Shown piece by piece: positions 3,883 through 15,275 of a DNA stretch of 15,275 nucleotides. Both the position numbers and the translations under genes were made by a program. How positions within the stretch are numbered: position 1 is the stretch's first letter; every line of letters begins with the position of its first letter. Location of the stretch: IMG/VR virus record IMGVR_UViG_2778261031_000003; one strand, given 5' to 3'. The notes below the pieces were generated by a model. That model saw only the letters and a program-made list of their open reading frames with translations. It did not search any database and was not told the DNA's origin. This DNA comes from a virus (taxonomy: Duplodnaviria; Heunggongvirae; Uroviricota; Caudoviricetes).

Positions 3883-3921
3883 AAGCCATCAGCAGGACGC
3901 ACTGACCACCATTGAAGGTGA

Positions 3922-3952
3922 TGCTCTTAAAAATTAAGCCCTGAAGAAGGGC
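3922..3952 (+). promoter_or_regulatory. nutL (boxA variant tgctcttaaaaattaa, boxB gccctgaagaagggc at 3938-3952)
   Basis: Near-exact match to recalled lambda nutL; boxB is a 5-bp stem with a GAAGA loop. Confidence 0.85.
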
Positions 3953-4110
3953 AGCATTCAAAGCAGAAGGCTTTGGGGTGTGTGATACGAAACGAAGCAT
4001 TGGCCGGAAGTGCGAATCCGGATTAGCTGCAAATGAGCCAATCGTGGGGTGTTTTCGTTCAGGACTACGACTCACACACACCACCAAAGCTAACTGACAA
4101 GAGAATCCAG

Positions 4111-4434
4111 ATGGATGCACAAACACGCCGCCGCGAACGTCGCGCAGAGAAACAGGCTCAATGGAAAGCAGCAAATCCCCTGTTGGTTGGGGTAAGCGCA
4201 AAACCAGTTAACCGCCCTATTCTCTCGCTGAATCGCAAACCGAAATCACGAGTAGAAAGCGCACTGAATCCGATAGACCTTACGGTGCTGGCTGAATACC
4301 ACGAACAGATTGAAAGCAACCTGCAACGTATTGAGCGCAAGAATCATCGAGTTTGGTATAGCAAGCCAAGTGAGTTCGGTATAACTTGTCAAGGAAGACA
4401 AAAGGTTAAAGGGAAATCCATTCCATTGGCATGA
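4111..4434 (+). CDS. N: Antitermination protein N (107 aa)
   Basis: MDAQTRRRERRAEKQAQWKAANPLLVGVSAKPVNRPILSLNRKPKSRVESALNPIDLTVLAEYH... matches recalled lambda N, including the arginine-rich N-terminal motif. The track ORF start at 4033 is an upstream extension. Confidence 0.9.
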   Translation: MDAQTRRRERRAEKQAQWKAANPLLVGVSAKPVNRPILSLNRKPKSRVESALNPIDLTVLAEYHEQIESNLQRIERKNHRVWYSKPSEFGITCQGRQKVKGKSIPLA

Positions 4435-4442
4435 GGTACGTA

Positions 4443-5312
4443 ATGAAGAAAATTGATTACAAGTCCATACCAAAACCAATAGACTCAGCATCAGAGCGAA
4501 AAAAACACAAAAAAGAGGCTGAAAAATTAGCAAATTATATCAGTTTTATTAGAAACAATGCTCACGGCGATGGCGACAGGAAGTTGCTTTCAGATGCCCG
4601 GACCCAAGCGTTCAGCATACTTCGTAAGCAGATGCAATATCGTCTTCATCCAGGCTACATAATTGAAATTCGCCCGACTGAAAGACAATTGTTCTTATTA
4701 AACTCTGTCTTTGACTTTGTAAACGTAGTTGGAGATCTTATCGACAGGTCTGTAGATAAGGCTCCTGATACAAATAGTTTTCTTCTAACAAATAAAGAAT
4801 ACTTATATGGTAAATTTGGTATAAACGGATGGCAAAAATATGTACGATTCTTACGTGCATTCGTTGATGCGTATAAAAATTCCGACATGATTTATACATA
4901 TTTGCCTGGTGGTAATAATTGTACGCTTTCGGCAGACAATAGAATATTCATACCTATACTTGGTCTTGGGCTGATTAATGCAGTAAATGAAAGAGATGTT
5001 ATAATTGTTAAGCAGTGGCGAAAGCATGAGGGATATAGATATCTGCCATGCTTTGATATATTAAAAATACAGAATAAATTCTATGTGAAAATTAAATATA
5101 AAGAAGATGTTTTCTTCCTCAGAAAAAACAAAGATCTTTTACAAGAACTTTCTGGGACAATAGATGTCATCGTAGGTTCTAGGTTTATAAAAGAACTGAA
5201 AGAAAGCAGGTCTTTCTCTCGTGTAGAGATAAGCGAGTCAGAGTTATGGGGTATATCAAATAATCCTGTAAACCACGCTCACCAACGAAATCCAAACAAA
5301 AAGTGGTCATAA
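4443..5312 (+). CDS. Hypothetical protein (about 290 aa), AT-rich cargo gene A between N and cIII; candidate phage-exclusion/defence protein
   Basis: Long ORF with gaggt SD 7 nt upstream of the ATG at 4443. An alternative start at 4431 overlaps the N stop as ATGA. Very AT-rich and lysine/asparagine/isoleucine-rich; no lambda counterpart recognised. Confidence 0.7.
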   Translation: MKKIDYKSIPKPIDSASERKKHKKEAEKLANYISFIRNNAHGDGDRKLLSDARTQAFSILRKQMQYRLHPGYIIEIRPTERQLFLLNSVFDFVNVVGDLIDRSVDKAPDTNSFLLTNKEYLYGKFGINGWQKYVRFLRAFVDAYKNSDMIYTYLPGGNNCTLSADNRIFIPILGLGLINAVNERDVIIVKQWRKHEGYRYLPCFDILKIQNKFYVKIKYKEDVFFLRKNKDLLQELSGTIDVIVGSRFIKELKESRSFSRVEISESELWGISNNPVNHAHQRNPNKKWS

Positions 5313-5335
5313 CCCGCTCAGGCGGGTTTCATTTT
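5313..5335 (+). terminator. Intrinsic terminator after cargo gene A
   Basis: cccgc (5313-5317), loop tcag, gcggg (5322-5326), then tttcatttt. Confidence 0.5.
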
Positions 5336-5454
5336 CACGCAAACAATAGAATAAACACTGCACTGTGTATTCATTCCAACGAGTGAATACACGGAGCAAT
5401 GTCGCTCGTAACTAAACAGGAGTCGACTTGTTCTGATTATTGGAAATCTTCTTT

Positions 5455-5480
5455 GCCCTCCAGTATGAGGGCGATTTTTT
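5455..5480 (+). terminator. Intrinsic terminator immediately upstream of cargo gene B
   Basis: gccctc (5455-5460), loop cagtat, gagggc (5467-5472), followed by gatttttt. Confidence 0.7.
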
Positions 5481-5500
5481 ATCTGTGAGGATATGAATAG

Positions 5501-5869
5501 ATGTCAAACATCAAAAAATACATCATTGATTACGACTGGAAAGCATCAATAGAAATTGAAATCGACCATGACGTAATGACAGAGGAAAAACTTTACCAGA
5601 TTAATAATTTCTGGTCAGACTCTGAATACCGACTCAATAAACACGGCTCTGTATTAAATGCTGTATTAATCATGCTGGCGCAACATGCTCTGCTTATAGC
5701 AATTTCAAGCGACTTAAATGCATATGGTGTTGTGTGTGAGTTCGACTGGAATGATGGAAATGGTCAGGAAGGATGGCCTCCAATGGATGGTAGCGAAGGA
5801 ATAAGAATTACCGATATCGATACATCAGGAATATTTGATCCAGATGATATGACTATCAAAGCCGCCTGA
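5501..5869 (+). CDS. Hypothetical protein (122 aa), cargo gene B, acidic C-terminal region
   Basis: ORF with gagga SD about 9 nt upstream of the ATG at 5501; hydrophobic central segment and a D/E-rich C-terminus; no recognised lambda homologue. Confidence 0.65.
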   Translation: MSNIKKYIIDYDWKASIEIEIDHDVMTEEKLYQINNFWSDSEYRLNKHGSVLNAVLIMLAQHALLIAISSDLNAYGVVCEFDWNDGNGQEGWPPMDGSEGIRITDIDTSGIFDPDDMTIKAA

Positions 5870-5941
5870 GCGCGGCGTTACCGCATACCAATAACGCTTC
5901 ACTCGAGGCGTTTTTCGTTATGTATAAATAAGGAGCACACC

Positions 5942-6106
5942 ATGCAATATGCCATTGCAGGGTGGCCTGTTGCTGGCTGCCCTTCCGAATCTTTACTTGA
6001 ACGAATCACCCGTAAATTACGTGACGGATGGAAACGCCTTATCGACATACTTAATCAGCCAGGAGTCCCAAAAAATGGATCAAACACTTATGGCTATCCA
6101 GACTAA
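5942..6106 (+). CDS. cIII: CIII protein (54 aa; FtsH/HflB inhibitor)
   Basis: Manual translation gives [54 protein letters not shown], matching recalled lambda CIII. Below the ORF-track size cutoff; aggag SD upstream. Confidence 0.85.
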   Translation: MQYAIAGWPVAGCPSESLLERITRKLRDGWKRLIDILNQPGVPKNGSNTYGYPD

Positions 6107-6239
6107 ATTCACTATCGCCACTTTTATTGGCGATGAAAAGATGTTTCGTGAGGCCGTCGACGCTTATAAAAAATGGATATTAATACTGAAACTGAGATCA
6201 AGCAAAAGCATTCACTACCCCCCTTCCCTGTTTTTCTAA
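6075..6239 (+). CDS. kil: Kil (host cell-division inhibitor), about 54 aa here
   Basis: [43 protein letters not shown]... matches recalled lambda Kil; starts 31 nt before the cIII stop, as in lambda. The track ORF start at 5949 is an out-of-frame extension over cIII. The C-terminus appears a few residues longer than my recollection of lambda Kil. Confidence 0.7.
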
Positions 6240-6589
6240 TCAGCCCGGCATTTCGCGGACGATATTTTCACAGCTATTTCAGGAGTTCAGCCATGAACGC
6301 TTATTACATTCAGGATCGTCTTGAGGCTCAGAGCTGGGCGCGTCACTACCAGCAGATCGCCCGTGAAGAGAAAGAGGCAGAACTGGCAGACGACATGGAA
6401 AAAGGCCTGCCCCAGCACCTGTTTGAATCGCTATGCATCGATCATTTGCAACGCCACGGGGCCAGCAAAAAAGCCATTACCCGTGCGTTTGATGACGATG
6501 TTGAGTTTCAGGAGCGCATGGCAGAACACATCCGGTACATGGTTGAAACCATTGCTCACCATCAGGTTGATATTGATTCAGAGGTATAA
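6173..6589 (+). CDS. gam: Gam (RecBCD inhibitor, 138-aa long form; short form would start at the internal MNAYY)
   Basis: [74 protein letters not shown]... matches recalled lambda Gam. Confidence 0.9.
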
Positions 6590-8790: not shown

Positions 8791-9009
8791 ATGGCAGACA
8801 TCATTGATTCAGCATCAGAAATCGAAGAATTACAGCGCAATACAGCAATAAAAATGCGTCGTCTGAACTACCAGACTGTATCCGCAACTCATTGTTGTGA
8901 GTGTGGCGATCCGATAGATGAGCGAAGACGCCTGGCTGTTCAGGGTTGTCGGACTTGTGCGAGTTGCCAGGAGGAGATCGAACTTAAGAACAAACAATGG
9001 GGACTGTGA
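8791..9009 (+). CDS. TraR/DksA-family C4-type zinc-finger protein (72 aa)
   Basis: Two CxxC pairs (CCECGDPIDERRRLAVQGCRTCASCQ) with the spacing and short acidic N-terminal helix typical of phage/plasmid TraR-like proteins. Confidence 0.7.
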   Translation: MADIIDSASEIEELQRNTAIKMRRLNYQTVSATHCCECGDPIDERRRLAVQGCRTCASCQEEIELKNKQWGL

Positions 9010-9678: not shown

Positions 9679-10697
9679 AAAAGCTAGGGGATTTACCTGA
9701 TGTCACTTTTGAAGAGGCCTGCCTAAGATGGCTTGAGGAAAAAGCTGATAAAAAATCTCTCGATTCAGATAAAAGCCGGATTGAGTTCTGGCTTGAACAT
9801 TTTGAGGGTATAAGGCTTAAAGATATCTCGGAGGCAAAGATTTACTCTGCTGTAAGCAGAATGCATAACAGAAAGACGAAAGAAATATGGAAACAGAAAG
9901 TTCAGGCCGCCATCAGGAAAGGTAAAGAACTGCCTGTTTATGAACCAAAGCCAGTATCAACTCAGACAAAGGCAAAGCATCTTGCCATGATAAAGGCCAT
10001 TCTCCGTGCTGCAGAACGCGACTGGAAGTGGCTGGAAAAAGCGCCTGTCATCAAGATACCAGCGGTCAGAAACAAGCGAGTCAGATGGCTGGAAAAGGAG
10101 GAAGCAAAACGCCTTATTGATGAGTGCCCCGAACCACTGAAATCTGTCGTCAAGTTTGCGCTGGCAACTGGTCTGAGAAAGTCGAACATCATAAATCTGG
10201 AATGGCAACAAATCGACATGCAGCGACGAGTTGCCTGGGTGAATCCAGAAGAGAGCAAATCAAACCGCGCCATTGGTGTGGCGCTGAACGATACCGCCTG
10301 TAAAGTGTTGCGTGATCAAATAGGCAAGCATCACAAATGGGTGTTTGTACATACCAAGGCGGCTAAGCGAGCAGATGGAACATCAACGCCTGCGGTCAGG
10401 AAGATGCGCATCGACAGCAAGACATCATGGCTATCAGCTTGTCGTCGTGCAGGAATTGAAGATTTCCGTTTCCATGACCTCAGACACACCTGGGCAAGCT
10501 GGCTGATTCAGTCAGGCGTCCCATTATCAGTGCTTCAGGAAATGGGCGGATGGGAGTCCATAGAAATGGTTCGTAGGTATGCTCACCTTGCGCCTAATCA
10601 TTTGACAGAGCATGCGAGGAAAATAGACGACATTTTTGGTGATAATGTCCCAAATATGTCCCACTCTGGAATTATGGAGGATATAAAGAAGGCGTAA
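9534..10697 (+). pseudogene. int: Tyrosine integrase, P22/DLP12 (IntD)-type, 388 codons with an in-frame TAG at codon 46 (9669-9671)
   Basis: Translation from the ATG at 9534 gives [45 protein letters not shown][28 protein letters not shown]..., continuing in the same frame into the 278-aa track ORF (9861-10697), which holds the catalytic C-terminus ([10 protein letters not shown]...VRRYAHL). Recalled P22 Int has W at the position of the stop. Confidence 0.8.
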
Positions 10698-10712
10698 CTG
10701 ATTGAATTGTAA

Positions 10713-10789
10713 TGGCGCGCCCTGCAGGATTCGAACCTGCGGCCCACGACTTAGAAGGTCGTTGCTCTATCCAACTGAGCTAAGGGCGC
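10713..10789 (-). tRNA. argU: tRNA-Arg (anticodon UCU), argU-like; prophage integration target
   Basis: Reverse complement reads GCGCCCTTAGCTCAGTTGGATAGAGCAACGACCTTCTAAGTCGTGGGCCGCAGGTTCGAATCCTGCAGGGCGCGCCA: cloverleaf-compatible, anticodon loop CT-TCT-AA, 3' CCA encoded. The int stop lies 16 nt from the tRNA 3' end. Confidence 0.9.
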
Positions 10790-11031
10790 GTTGATACCGC
10801 AATGCGGTGTAATCGCGTGAATTATACGGTCAACCCTTGCTGAGTCAATGGCTTTTGATCTGGTTGCTGAACAAGTGAACGACCGCGTCTGATTTTCTGA
10901 TTTATTTCGCTATAGTGGCAAACAAACGCACACCGCTGCGCGTCTGAATCAAGAAAACCCGTATTTTCATGTATCAAAGTACAATTTACCGCCCTAACGG
11001 AAAATTGTCCGCTCCTATGAGACTGGTAACT

Positions 11032-11664
11032 ATGAAACCAACGTCGGTGATCATTATGGATACTCATCCTATCATCAGAATGTCTATTGAAGTTCTGTTG
11101 CAAAAAAACAGTGAATTGCAGATTGTCCTGAAAACGGATGATTACCGCATAACCATCGATTATCTCCGAACCCGTCCTGTTGATTTAATCATTATGGATA
11201 TAGACTTGCCCGGAACAGACGGTTTTACCTTCCTGAAAAGGATCAAACAAATCCAGAGCACAGTGAAAGTGTTATTTTTATCATCGAAATCAGAATGCTT
11301 TTATGCTGGCAGAGCGATACAAGCTGGTGCTAACGGTTTTGTCAGTAAATGCAATGATCAGAATGATATTTTTCATGCCGTTCAGATGATCCTCTCCGGA
11401 TACACGTTTTTTCCTAGCGAAACGCTTAACTATATAAAAAGCAATAAATGTAGTACGAATAGTTCAACGATCACTGTGCTATCTAATCGTGAAGTGACCA
11501 TATTACGTTATCTGGTTAGCGGATTATCTAATAAAGAAATTGCCGATAAGTTATTACTTAGCAATAAAACAGTTAGTGCGCATAAATCTAATATTTATGG
11601 CAAGCTAGGTTTGCATTCAATTGTAGAGCTTATCGACTACGCCAAATTATACGAATTAATATAA
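11032..11664 (+). CDS. fimZ: LuxR/FixJ-family two-component response regulator FimZ (210 aa)
   Basis: Receiver domain (IIMDIDLPGTDGF) plus C-terminal LuxR-type HTH (LSNREVTILRYLVSGLSNKEIADKLLLSNKTVSAHKSNIYGKLG); matches recalled FimZ and its position between argU and the sfm operon. The track ORF start at 10969 is an extension. Confidence 0.85.
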   Translation: MKPTSVIIMDTHPIIRMSIEVLLQKNSELQIVLKTDDYRITIDYLRTRPVDLIIMDIDLPGTDGFTFLKRIKQIQSTVKVLFLSSKSECFYAGRAIQAGANGFVSKCNDQNDIFHAVQMILSGYTFFPSETLNYIKSNKCSTNSSTITVLSNREVTILRYLVSGLSNKEIADKLLLSNKTVSAHKSNIYGKLGLHSIVELIDYAKLYELI

Positions 11665-11666
11665 TA

Positions 11667-12182
11667 TTAATTATAATTGATCATAAATATCGCATCCGCT
11701 TTCGCCACACCTGGCCGAACACCGCTGGCTAACGCTCGATAATTGGCAAAAAAGTTTAGTGTGACATTGCCATTTGCATCTACTTCCTCAGTCGGGCTCG
11801 CCTCCCCCAGTGCGAGCCGGGAGCGATCGCTATTACGTAATTCGATGGCGACGGTTTGTGCCATTGCGGGATCATCCAGAGCCAGCAGGTTGGTATCGGA
11901 TGCCGGCGTTCCCGTAAATAAAATCGCAACTGAACCCGGAGGACATCCCTCCAGCCGCAGGCTAAAAGGGACGAGTGCCGTGGTATCGCCAGCGTTCAGT
12001 AATTGTGTCGTAGGCCATCTGCCTAAATCTACCGTCTTATCAATATCCGCTGTGTTTACGGTACAGGAGAAATCAACAACGTTACCGTGCAAATTGATAT
12101 TAATCGTTCCTAAAGGGTCAGCTGCCCATCCACTGGAACTCCACAGTAACCCGCAGAAACAGCTAAAGAGTACTCTTCTCAT
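11667..12182 (-). CDS. sfmF: Fimbrial minor subunit (SfmF/FimG-like, 171 aa)
   Basis: ATG (reverse complement) at 12180-12182 gives MRRVLFSCFCGLLWSSSGWAADPLG... with a signal peptide and pilin-domain features. The 236-aa track ORF is an upstream extension. Confidence 0.8.
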   Translation of the reverse strand: MRRVLFSCFCGLLWSSSGWAADPLGTININLHGNVVDFSCTVNTADIDKTVDLGRWPTTQLLNAGDTTALVPFSLRLEGCPPGSVAILFTGTPASDTNLLALDDPAMAQTVAIELRNSDRSRLALGEASPTEEVDANGNVTLNFFANYRALASGVRPGVAKADAIFMINYN

Positions 12183-12192
12183 TCTCCGTACC

Positions 12193-13170
12193 TCATTGAT
12201 AATCGACGCGTAAATACCCCAGCGCGCTAAACGGCCCCTCGGTCGGTTTTTGACCGGTAATACTGATAGGCCAGGCGCGAAGTGTGACATTGGCTGCCGC
12301 AGCTGCATCCAGACGGAAAGGAATAACGCTATTGAGATCGTTAGGCGTAATCGGCGTATCGTTCTGATCGGCGACAATAAAACCTAAATCCTGATTGTCC
12401 GACACCATCGCCTGACCAGAAACGGCACTGGCTTCCAGACGCATTGTTAAATAAGCCTGCGCAGCAACATTCGTACATTTGACCGCAATGCTCTTGGTTT
12501 GCGGCATGACGCCAGCTGGTCGATTCCCCGGCCCTGCCGCACTAAATAACGATGCGCCGATATCACCAAAATCAAATTCAACAATCTGCCCGGCATTTAA
12601 TTCGCAGTTTTGCGGCACTTCAACCCGGCCACCAAAACTAATGGTATAAACAGGTGTAACCAACGGATCGTAAGGCGTTGATGTCACATACACGGTAAAC
12701 ATCACCTGTCTGGGGATCTCCACCATGTTAATAAAGGGACGAATAACCTTTAAACGAAATATTAAACGAGAATCCATCACCCCGAATGGAAGGTTTTGCG
12801 AAACGTTAGGATCTGTTCCCATCCGAATATAATTTTGCGGGGGGAACTGAATATCCATCACACTATCAACCAGACTCATCGCACCTAATAGATAATCATG
12901 TAATTGCATATATTTATAATTATCGATAGTTTCCTGAACAATAAAGTTGGTGACATAACTACGGTATGTATAATTCACCAGCGTACCGGGTGGACAAATT
13001 GCTGAGACACCTACCCAGCCGGATTTTTCCGGTAAAACAACAATCTGCCCTGGCTGGTTATTGGTGCTATTAAAGATATTTGAGAGATCATAGTGTTCAT
13101 CTTCTGCTACGCCAGTACTATTTGCACAAACAGTAGCCCAGGATATGTTTGCCAGACACAAACATGCCAT
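12193..13170 (-). CDS. sfmH: Fimbrial adhesin-like protein (SfmH/FimH-like); start codon uncertain
   Basis: Open frame of 376 codons overlapping the usher 3' end. The first in-frame ATG after the usher stop is at 13168-13170 (MACLCLANISWA...); a TTG lies at 13174-13176; a fuller signal peptide ([26 protein letters not shown]) lies upstream but has no canonical start codon. Confidence 0.7.
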   Translation of the reverse strand: MACLCLANISWATVCANSTGVAEDEHYDLSNIFNSTNNQPGQIVVLPEKSGWVGVSAICPPGTLVNYTYRSYVTNFIVQETIDNYKYMQLHDYLLGAMSLVDSVMDIQFPPQNYIRMGTDPNVSQNLPFGVMDSRLIFRLKVIRPFINMVEIPRQVMFTVYVTSTPYDPLVTPVYTISFGGRVEVPQNCELNAGQIVEFDFGDIGASLFSAAGPGNRPAGVMPQTKSIAVKCTNVAAQAYLTMRLEASAVSGQAMVSDNQDLGFIVADQNDTPITPNDLNSVIPFRLDAAAAANVTLRAWPISITGQKPTEGPFSALGYLRVDYQ

Positions 13171-13211
13171 CGCCAATAATAATCTGCAGATTATCTTATT
13201 GATAATTTCCT

Positions 13212-15275
13212 TTATGAGCCAGGATGTGTGCAAACTGCCGAAATAACAGTGACGGCTTGCTGTAAGCTTTGCTTCGGCAATACATAGTGCGCAATGCAGC
13301 GTGAGTTCGCGCCGTCTCCCCACTGAACCAGTAATTCACCAGACAATGGCGCACCACTTAAATAAACTTGCCCGTCATCACCCACCATACTGGTTATTCC
13401 GGTACTGTTTTCCCGTACCAGTGATCCAAACGGCACCGGTTTTCCGCCCTGGGTAACGGTAATGAGCGCCCGCACGCCTATGCGGGTATCAAAATTGGCA
13501 CGAACCAACGCGCCTTGCGTCGGCACAACGCTGCTAATATTTTTTTCAACATCGATGGAATTCCCCATCGTATTGGTATCAAGCGCGATACGGTTATACC
13601 GATAAACCGTGGCATACGGCATCACCGCATAGCCGCGCCAGTCGGTTAAAATGCCAGTTTGATTTTCAATGCGTACACCGCCTGCGCCAGGTGCTTTAAT
13701 CAAAACATTGGTATCCCCTAAAGGCTGGCTCAGCGTTATGCCATTTTCATGCCCGACCACACCGCCAGACAGCTGCCAGTTAACGTCATGTTGATCGCGG
13801 TCGTAGTTATACCCGACCCCCAGCGTACCGTAAGCGGCCTGCCAGTTTGCCGTGGCGCTGCCCGTGTACCCATTATTCGAGGTATCACCCTGGCTTACGT
13901 GATAACTCAGGTTGTGGCCTTCCAGTAAGGTCCCACCTACACCTGCCAGCCAGCTATTTTGCCCGTTGCTGTTACGGTTGGCGTTAAAGGAGGCATAAGC
14001 GCGGTCGAGCGCATTTTCCCGGGTGTAGCGACGTTTGGTCAAAACATTGAAAGGCACTGAAACATTAAGTCCGACAATACGTTCGTTATCGGGGATCCCT
14101 ACAGATTCATTCCACGAAAATGAGAGCGAATAACTGATGCCAACCCAGCTGCTGGTATACCCCACCTGATACCACGTATCTGAATCCGAAGTATTCCAGT
14201 ATTTTTGATGGGTACCAGAGATATAAAGCGAGCCAAAGTCATTAAGTGATTGTGAAATATTTAACTGCAAACGGTCTTTACGGCTAAAGCGTAAATTGTG
14301 GTAATTCACGATTATCGGTTCATCGCGATGCTCACCGTCGTAATCGTAATCATATTCGTACCCCTCCATTCGACGATACGCAACATCATCAAGGGTATAA
14401 AAACCTTGTGTCGAATAGCGGTAACCCATTAACTGAAAATTGGTGCCGAAGGTGTTCATTGATTTCGCATAGAGGAAGCGAATGGAATCCCCCTCATGAC
14501 GACTGTCGTCGGCTAACTGACTGCGCGCATGCGTTACATCCAGCGACACTGCGCCCCAGTTCCCGAGGTTGCGCCCCAGCCCTAACAAAAAGGCGGTGTA
14601 ATTGGCAGATAATTGCGTCCCGCCGTAGGCAGTAAATTCCTGTGGTAAACCACCGAGTGCCGTGCCCTGAAAAAAGAAAGGTGATGATTGCTGACTATTA
14701 CCGCTACGAAAATCGCCCGCCGTCAGATCAAATTTGAAACGCCCTTCGCGTTGTAAAATTGGCACTGTTGAATACGGAATTGTGTAATTCTGCTGATTGC
14801 CATCGCGCTCGTCGATGGTGACGTCCAGATCGCCATTTGAAGATGTCGGGTGCAAATCTGTAATTTCAAAAGCGCCGGGGGAAACATAGCTTTGATAGAT
14901 AATAAAACCATTTTGCCGAATCGTTAGCTGGGCCGCCGTACGGGCAATCCCACGTACCGTTGGGGCAAACCCTTGCTGGCTATCAGGATACATATTATCA
15001 GAAGAATAAAGCCGTACACCACGAAATCCAACGCCATCGAAAATATCACTTCCTGTATTGCCGTCTCCCATTACCAGTTCACTTTTCAGCGGAATAATGG
15101 CGCGCTGTACCCAGGTGCCAATATTATTCCACTGTTCTGAATGATATCCATTTCCGCGAAAATAGTTCCAGGAACCATTGTTGCGTAAACGCCACGGGGG
15201 CTTTGTTGAATAAATCGAACTTTTGCTGAGTTGAAGGATCAGATCACGTATCTTCCCGACAACGCAGACCGTTCC
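13212..15275 (-). CDS. sfmD: Fimbrial outer-membrane usher (SfmD/FimD-like), N-terminally truncated by the window edge
   Basis: The frame stays open from the stop at 13212-13214 to the window end (manual translation of 15072-15275 shows no stop: ...[39 protein letters not shown]...). 688 codons in the window; ushers are typically about 850-870 aa. Confidence 0.85.

Follow-up and report, generated by a model that had tools for sequence, protein, structure and literature searches.

A phage 434-type prophage gene that carries the Nun arrest peptide on a predicted TnpB-like lobe: a putative transcription-arrest factor

The Nun protein of phage HK022 is the textbook example of a phage protein that blocks RNA polymerase (RNAP) translocation, and it has been regarded as a singular case that relies on an RNA-binding arginine-rich motif (ARM). 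Its C-terminal peptide enters the active-site cleft of RNAP and blocks translocation there. Domesticated relatives of the transposon-encoded TnpB nucleases form another class of targeting proteins; in outline, TldRs still possess RuvC, as an inactivated domain, together with an adjacent guide RNA, and they repress via RNA-guided DNA binding. In this work, a 15,275-nucleotide stretch of a Caudoviricetes record (IMG/VR virus record IMGVR_UViG_2778261031_000003) was analyzed, which is referred to as the window and whose positions are used throughout. Its gene A, located directly behind the antiterminator gene N, carries the Nun peptide, apparently under selection, on a wholly different targeting domain of predicted TnpB/Cas12 relatedness, and this combination is present in the classic laboratory phage 434. 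On balance, we lean towards the reading that gene A encodes a Nun-type transcription-arrest factor, probably acting in exclusion, with a new TnpB-derived targeting domain. The protein is best read as a three-part chimera of a basic N-terminal hairpin, a nuclease-less TnpB/Cas12-type REC lobe and the Nun C-terminal peptide. The gene and its parts are as follows.

4443-5312, plus strand: gene A, 289 amino acids (aa), orthologue of phage 434 gp48; match to PHROG 12139 (unknown function) at E=3e-203
4443-4643, plus strand: basic N-terminal helical hairpin (aa 1-67); AlphaFold2 (AF2) helices 16-38 and 43-65, with a predicted local distance difference test score (pLDDT) of about 90
4650-5102, plus strand: putative TnpB/Cas12-type REC lobe (aa ~70-220); predicted fold: WED beta-barrel into which a four-helix REC is inserted
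5268-5309, plus strand: Nun-type tail (aa 276-289), VNHAHQRNPNKKWS, identical in 14/14 residues to HK022 Nun residues 96-109
5267-5379, plus strand: DNA block common to HK022 at 95.6% identity, comprising the nun 3' end, stop codon, terminator and downstream DNA (HK022 side: locus L003, 2500-2612)

Clear links emerge between the tail of gene A and the structural information available on Nun. A sequence search of solved structures with gene A returned Nun in the RNAP elongation complex (PDB 6ALG) as its sole match, covering residues 263-289, and the same search with the family profile of gene A returned no match. The Nun family PHROG 5632 matched gene A residues 274-293, numbered from an alternative upstream ATG at 4431, with its profile positions 93-112 only. 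[quoted passage not shown] The key residues N97, H98, H100, R102, K106/K107 and W108 are all present in the gene A tail. Comparison of the family members shows precisely V, N, H, A, H, R, K, K and W to be unchanged in the tail; the equivalents of Q101, N103, P104 and N105 vary. The tail is conserved in homologues of 37-68% overall identity, and the differences between its codons in two of the loci, L004 and L005, lie at synonymous sites. Because 11 of the 14 residues are kept in the homologues of 37-48% identity and the codon changes are synonymous, the tail peptide appears to be under purifying selection, beyond what mere recent transfer would explain. Such a transfer is also part of its history: the homology junction between HK022 and 434 falls exactly at the Val96 codon of nun (5267) and the homology extends to an IS903 insertion in HK022, which shows a recent exchange between HK022 and a 434-type phage at the 3' end of gene A/nun.

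The tail is found on other carriers as well. A profile search with a 51-aa Nun C-terminal query located it joined to the Nun ARM and also to an ARM of the lambda-N type (P0026-P0028). The latter three are 88-aa proteins that start MDAQARRREKRKEKQEEW... and end ...VVNHAHQRNRNKKW, and they lie in the N slot of lambdoid prophages (L026 5001-5267; L027 and L028). In them, an arginine-rich motif of the lambda-N type, MDAQARRREKRKEKQEEWKRQNP (Pfam N36), is joined to the C-terminal half of Nun (...EDVMHRVVNHAHQRNRNKKW). These proteins resemble hybrids of N and Nun and illustrate that the arrest tail is a mobile module. In Proteus and Providencia, open reading frames (ORFs) of 37-46 aa end in the same tail (P0030-P0033). 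An ARM-like N-terminus of gene A itself ('AEKLANY', compared with 'AEKQAQW' of lambda N and 'EKRIAY' of Nun) was considered and rejected, as its residues are not conserved in homologues.

The body of gene A is predicted to have a different origin. In TnpB, the WED domain (residues 1-12 and 117-176) is a seven-stranded barrel with a flanking helix, and a four-helix REC domain is inserted after beta1 (PMC10097598). The WED-REC cleft of this lobe holds the duplex of the transposon-associated motif (TAM) DNA, and WED also helps to bind the omega-RNA scaffold. The predicted order of elements in P0011, a short member of the gene A family, is one strand, four helices, and six strands with one flanking helix, which equals the published WED/REC topology; its model is better than that of gene A, with a pLDDT of 77 that rises to about 88 over residues 1-155. 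At the level of the fold, these models suggest that the core of gene A is of the TnpB/Cas12 WED plus REC type, with WED beta1, the four-helix REC insertion, and then the remaining WED strands and the flanking helix, as in the REC lobe of IS200/IS605 OrfB proteins such as ISDra2 TnpB (PDB 8H1J). After WED only ~70 aa follow, forming helices and then the disordered tail, and a RuvC domain is therefore not possible in gene A. Consistent with this, neither RuvC with its D-E-D triad nor a TNB/zinc ribbon was found in the protein, which gave no Pfam OrfB_IS605 or OrfB_Zn_ribbon match. Gene A thus differs from TnpB/Cas12 in lacking RuvC, TNB/zinc ribbon, a TnpA partner and insertion sequence (IS) ends, in the absence of a conserved adjacent RNA among the loci compared, in its size of half that of TnpB or less, and in a sequence similarity that is marginal. 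At the homologue loci, too, no TnpA neighbour was present, and Rfam gave no match that might represent a guide RNA.

Compared with HK022 Nun, gene A shares the identical C-terminal 14 residues, the same terminator and flanking DNA after the gene, a location at the start of a lambdoid pL operon, and a modular logic of a targeting part followed by an arrest tail. The differences lie in the targeting part and in the setting. Nun is a protein of 109-112 aa whose ARM binds lambda boxB RNA, whereas gene A, with 289 aa, has no ARM homology and a lysine-rich N-terminus, and its targeting part would be the TnpB-like WED/REC lobe together with the helical hairpin. Nun is encoded in the N slot as the first pL gene, whereas gene A is second, behind a bona fide N, and coexists with lambda-type N and nut in one phage, which HK022 nun does not. 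Like the TldRs, including the prophage-encoded ones, gene A would be a TnpB-derived protein domesticated by temperate phages that presumably acts on transcription, but it is wholly devoid of RuvC and bears an RNAP-inserting peptide instead.

Part of this information is already in the databases. The gene is known as 434 gp48 (UMO75312.1), an orthologue at the same locus with 96.9% aa identity and no substantive difference, as PHROG 12139, and as many entries named 'hypothetical protein'; no function is given there beyond the Nun C-terminal peptide, which was noted by the annotators of 434. A preliminary description of the window, made from the sequence alone, had called the locus undescribed and had assigned its two genes to no lambda gene or familiar domain, but gene A is 434 gp48 and already figures as 'Nun C-terminal peptide-containing protein' in GenBank OL657226, and gene B, treated below, is Ea10/DUF2528. 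A literature search found no paper on 434 gp48, nor on TnpB together with Nun. Four observations appear to be new: the fold of TnpB type, the missing RuvC, the selective retention of those residues that make the contacts in Nun, and the spread of the tail as a module. Gene A had no match in Pfam, NCBIfam or PADLOC, and the family scans of its homologues were likewise empty. As to its start, the description had offered two possibilities, both of which are present in the DNA: an ATGA at 4431-4434 that overlaps the stop codon of N, and an ATG at 4443 behind a GAGG (4434-4437). The latter, 9 nucleotides downstream of the N stop codon, is backed by homologues and by the annotation of phage 434.

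The family is small, with 5 clusters among 5.8 billion proteins and 14 matches among 1.8 billion representatives. It is divided into phage members of 288-290 aa, which have the basic N-terminal helical hairpin and the Nun tail and keep their length across 37-97% identity, and short members of 213-248 aa (P0011-P0016, P0019, P0020 and P0022; loci L007-L012), which have neither. The hairpin is thus confined to the Nun-tailed phage subgroup and is absent from 9/9 short homologues. The two groups clearly share homology across residues 72-278 of gene A (hhalign Prob 99.9%, E=2.8e-33; phmmer E=5.5e-9). The short members occur in neighbourhoods that are plasmid-like or resemble integrative and conjugative elements, with genes for ParB, anti-restriction, RadC, SNase and ParD. 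They terminate in a conserved G[KR]x[VI]xGGxxxxGKKR sequence, and this aligns with the Nun tail over the first half of the latter. The phage-type homologues are encoded either directly after N (P0004, 48% identity, at locus L004) or in the N/nun slot itself, which is the first slot of the operon (P0005, 42% identity, at locus L005). Among 5426 complete E. coli genomes, 93 (~1.7%) carry gene A, in which two allele groups are distinguished by ~10 synonymous and 9 non-synonymous codon differences.

The following mode of action would account for this architecture. Gene A is transcribed from pL, directly after N. Since the stretch from cI-hex to N showed no terminator on the plus strand, low-level read-through expression of gene A in the lysogen is also conceivable; such expression is reported for HK022 nun. 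The REC lobe, possibly with the basic hairpin, may tether the protein to a specific DNA motif or to a nascent-RNA element of a transcription unit, and the Nun-type tail would then block RNAP translocation at the tethered complex. The target is most likely not lambda nut, because the phage itself uses a lambda-type N and boxB and would harm itself by an attack on nut. Better candidates are a mobile element or phage in competition with it, which would amount to superinfection exclusion, or a specific transcription unit of the host or of a phage. We infer the arrest of RNAP by gene A, as well as its tethering mode, target and biological role, from the comparative analysis. If gene A arrests RNAP at defined sites, the Nun mechanism would be extended to new targets, a third fate of domesticated TnpB would be added to those of nuclease and repressor, and a compact design of targeting lobe plus arrest peptide would be available.

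A wider generalization is tentative, and we regard it as possible but somewhat doubtful: gene A and its relatives may form a new class of sequence-targeted RNAP arrest factors, in which recognition of a DNA motif or an RNA by a nuclease-less, TnpB-derived REC lobe, conceivably aided by a guide encoded in trans, brings a Nun-type peptide into the elongation complex. The peptide would then be a mobile module grafted onto the Nun ARM, the lambda-N ARM and the TnpB lobe, and Nun itself could be an N-type ARM fused to the 3' end of a gene-A-like gene. The origin of Nun becomes testable in this way. N and gene A are adjacent in the window, and one deletion that starts inside an N-type gene and reaches the 3' end of a gene like gene A would generate a Nun-like protein, which is a possible origin of Nun.

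Several observations weigh against gene A being an arrest factor with a TnpB-derived targeting domain. Nun H93 and R94, which contact upstream DNA, are replaced by S and N in gene A. The link to TnpB rests on predicted structures for which the alignments were shallow (9-16 sequences), it was a homologue and not gene A that gave the best fold match, and the AF2 model of gene A itself (pLDDT 64) gave sub-threshold fold matches only. An hhalign comparison of the gene A family with ten TnpBs was collinear (69-261 against 2-234) with P=0.0077, and 2/60 block-shuffled controls equalled its score. No DNA conservation outside the ORF, and hence no conserved flanking noncoding RNA that might be a guide or omega-RNA candidate, was found when L007 was compared with L011 and the window with L004/L005, a comparison of few loci in which a divergent RNA is possible. 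RuvC, too, is required in TnpB for binding of the RNA scaffold, and a REC lobe on its own may therefore be unable to bind RNA. Finally, co-expression with N in a phage that has lambda nut would make a Nun-like action at nut self-harming, and the analogy with Nun cannot be complete.

Other readings of gene A have to be set against these points. The tail might serve the development of the phage itself, either as an N antagonist or timing device on pL/pR or in the shut-off of specific host operons. Gene A is cotranscribed with N from pL upstream of both terminators that follow it, its homologues take the N-adjacent or the N position, and hybrids of an N ARM and a Nun tail exist in the N slot, all of which would suit such a role; yet the sole characterized bearer of the tail is an exclusion factor (PMC5386594), and the rarity of gene A, which lambda and most lambdoid phages lack and which is found in 2 of the ~330 phage records matching positions 4000-6300 and in 93/5426 E. 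coli genomes, is typical of accessory 'moron' functions rather than of core regulation, so that we consider a developmental role unlikely. It is also conceivable that the tail is a passive recombination scar and that gene A acts without contact to RNAP, for instance by binding DNA or RNA and serving as a repressor or roadblock in the manner of the nuclease-dead TldRs, or through an unrelated activity. The DNA identity of 95.6% that HK022 shares from the Val96 codon through the terminator reflects a recent exchange, and identity to Nun alone is no proof of selection; moreover, the short family members without the tail are presumably functional, and a precedent is provided by the TnpB-derived repressors of temperate phages outlined in two preprints (bioRxiv 10.1101/2023.11.30.569447 and 10.1101/2025.07.22.666180). 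However, every phage-type member retains the tail, down to 37% identity, the invariance sits precisely on the Nun contact residues while the tail codons diverge synonymously, and the perfect co-occurrence of tail and N-terminal hairpin suggests a co-adapted unit, which makes a scar distinctly improbable. That gene A is a functionless pseudogene fragment, the decaying remnant of an IS200/IS605 tnpB, is barely credible. The TnpB-like N-terminal fold without the nuclease half and the low G+C content would fit a remnant, but the length of 288-290 aa is maintained across the entire range of identities, the position in the pL operon is conserved, no TnpA gene, IS ends or RuvC remnant are present, the ratio of synonymous to non-synonymous codon differences between the alleles is consistent with constraint, and 83 of the 93 carrier genomes have an intact ORF.

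The preliminary description had proposed that gene A and gene B form a two-component anti-phage defence system, of either the sensor/effector or the toxin/immunity kind. It correctly located two plus-strand ORFs between N and cIII (4431/4443-5312 and 5501-5869) and an intrinsic-terminator-like hairpin before gene B, and overlooked a second one after the gene A stop codon. The elements concerned are the following.

5311-5335, plus strand: terminator-like hairpin immediately behind gene A, also found behind nun in HK022
5453-5482, plus strand: second terminator, a hairpin with a T-run, common to lambda and an annotated terminator in 434
5501-5869, plus strand: gene B, 122 aa, lambda ea10 (DUF2528), from Pfam PF10800, PHROG 646 and synteny with lambda

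Gene B matched Pfam PF10800 (DUF2528) with E=6.6e-46 over profile positions 1-104 of 104, and 120/122 aa are identical to lambda Ea10 (P68658), from which it differs by two substitutions only. It is situated in the ea10 slot of lambda, behind the same terminator, which ends 19 nucleotides before the gene. By sequence and position, gene B is thus recognizable as the ordinary lambda early gene ea10. The role of ea10 has been described as incompletely understood, and LPR1, an Hfq-bound small RNA (sRNA) of lambda, comes from the region between ral and ea10 (bioRxiv 10.1101/2024.10.31.621285). Positions 5395-5482 of the window, which are 98% common to lambda and end at the ea10-proximal terminator, correspond to the LPR1 sRNA, and the terminator at 5453-5482 corresponds to the 3' end of the lambda LPR1 region.

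Genes A and B are adjacent, on the same strand and both AT-rich, and the slot that they occupy carries sieB and ral in lambda, which speaks for a joint defence function. Their distribution does not. About 330 phage records match the N-gam query (4000-6300) via ea10-cIII-kil-gam, but gene A is contained in just the two 434 records among them, and the homologues P0004 and P0005 lie in lambdoid early-left operons without a DUF2528 neighbour. Thus, ea10 occurs without gene A and gene A homologues occur without ea10. The two genes are, in addition, separated by two terminator-like hairpins and by a region that encodes an sRNA in lambda, and a mosaic boundary at 5341 parts them evolutionarily. In PADLOC-DB, no match at E<=1 to any defence-protein model was obtained for gene A, gene B or seven homologues. 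Given this independent occurrence, the two intervening terminators and the mosaic junction, gene A and gene B are unrelated and not a functional pair. A toxin/immunity pairing of gene A with ea10 was rejected from the co-occurrence data, and a two-component defence system made up of both genes is highly improbable. The idea of a two-gene defence island at this interval is thereby corrected; what stands of it is an exclusion-type role for gene A alone, which is plausible given that this gene bears the arrest peptide of the superinfection-exclusion protein HK022 Nun.

The same division applies to the proposal of horizontally acquired cargo, which holds for gene A, an exchanged AT-rich gene in the N-cIII hotspot, but not for gene B, which is lambda's own ea10. 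Homology to lambda DNA covers 3887-4424 at 92.4% identity and 5341-6300 at 98.2%. Judged by this comparison, the non-lambda DNA of the interval is confined to 4425-5340 and stands in for the lambda sieB-ral segment, with gene A as its sole cargo gene; the replacement of ea10, which had also been supposed, did not take place, and it is sieB-ral that was exchanged. The AT-richness reported for both genes was confirmed, with G+C contents of 35.2% for gene A and 38.5% for gene B, against 48-52% in the flanking genes (N, 48.1%; bet, 52.4%; exo, 52.0%) and 46.5% in the whole window. Windows of 60 nucleotides in gene A contain 21/60 G+C on average and 9/60 at minimum.

The wider setting is that of a phage-434-type prophage. 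Positions 4000-6300 are 97.8% identical to the complete phage 434 genome (OL657226) over their full length, and the window represents the early region of such a prophage, integrated beside tRNA-Arg. The annotated order in 434, from the right-hand early end leftward, is ren, P, O, cII, cro(434), cI(434), hex, oL/pL, nutL and then N, followed by gp48, the terminator, ea10, cIII, kil, gam, bet and exo, and the order in the window is the same. The remaining features of the window are as follows.

3938-3954, plus strand: nutL boxB hairpin (GCCCTGAAGAAGGGC at 3938-3952), read in the sequence and annotated as nutL in the phage 434 record
4111-4434, plus strand: antiterminator N of the lambda type (Pfam N36, E=1.8e-26; 434 annotation)
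9861-10697: prophage integrase, 278 aa (possibly short)
10713-10789, minus strand: tRNA-Arg(UCU)

The phage thus relies on a lambda-type N/nut system. Past the integrase, the DNA is that of the host: the segment at 9861-15071, which contains the prophage end and the host flank, includes tRNA-Arg(UCU) as well as genes for a response regulator of the LuxR type, two fimbrial subunits and an usher, and it presumably represents the E. coli argU-fimZ-sfm neighbourhood, which it resembles. Further elements were noted along the pL operon. The cIII thermoregulator element of lambda (Rfam RF01804, 88.5 bits) was matched at 5929-5987. Farther down the operon, positions 8791-9009 encode a 72-aa DksA/TraR-type zinc-finger protein, annotated in 434 as 'zinc finger domain protein', which is another potential binder of the RNAP secondary channel. 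Decayed copies of the prophage region are present in E. coli (L013, strain O145:H28 RM13516; L015, strain EC190486; and hit H90): gam is frameshifted in one of these copies, and in others gene A is cut by an IS1 insertion.

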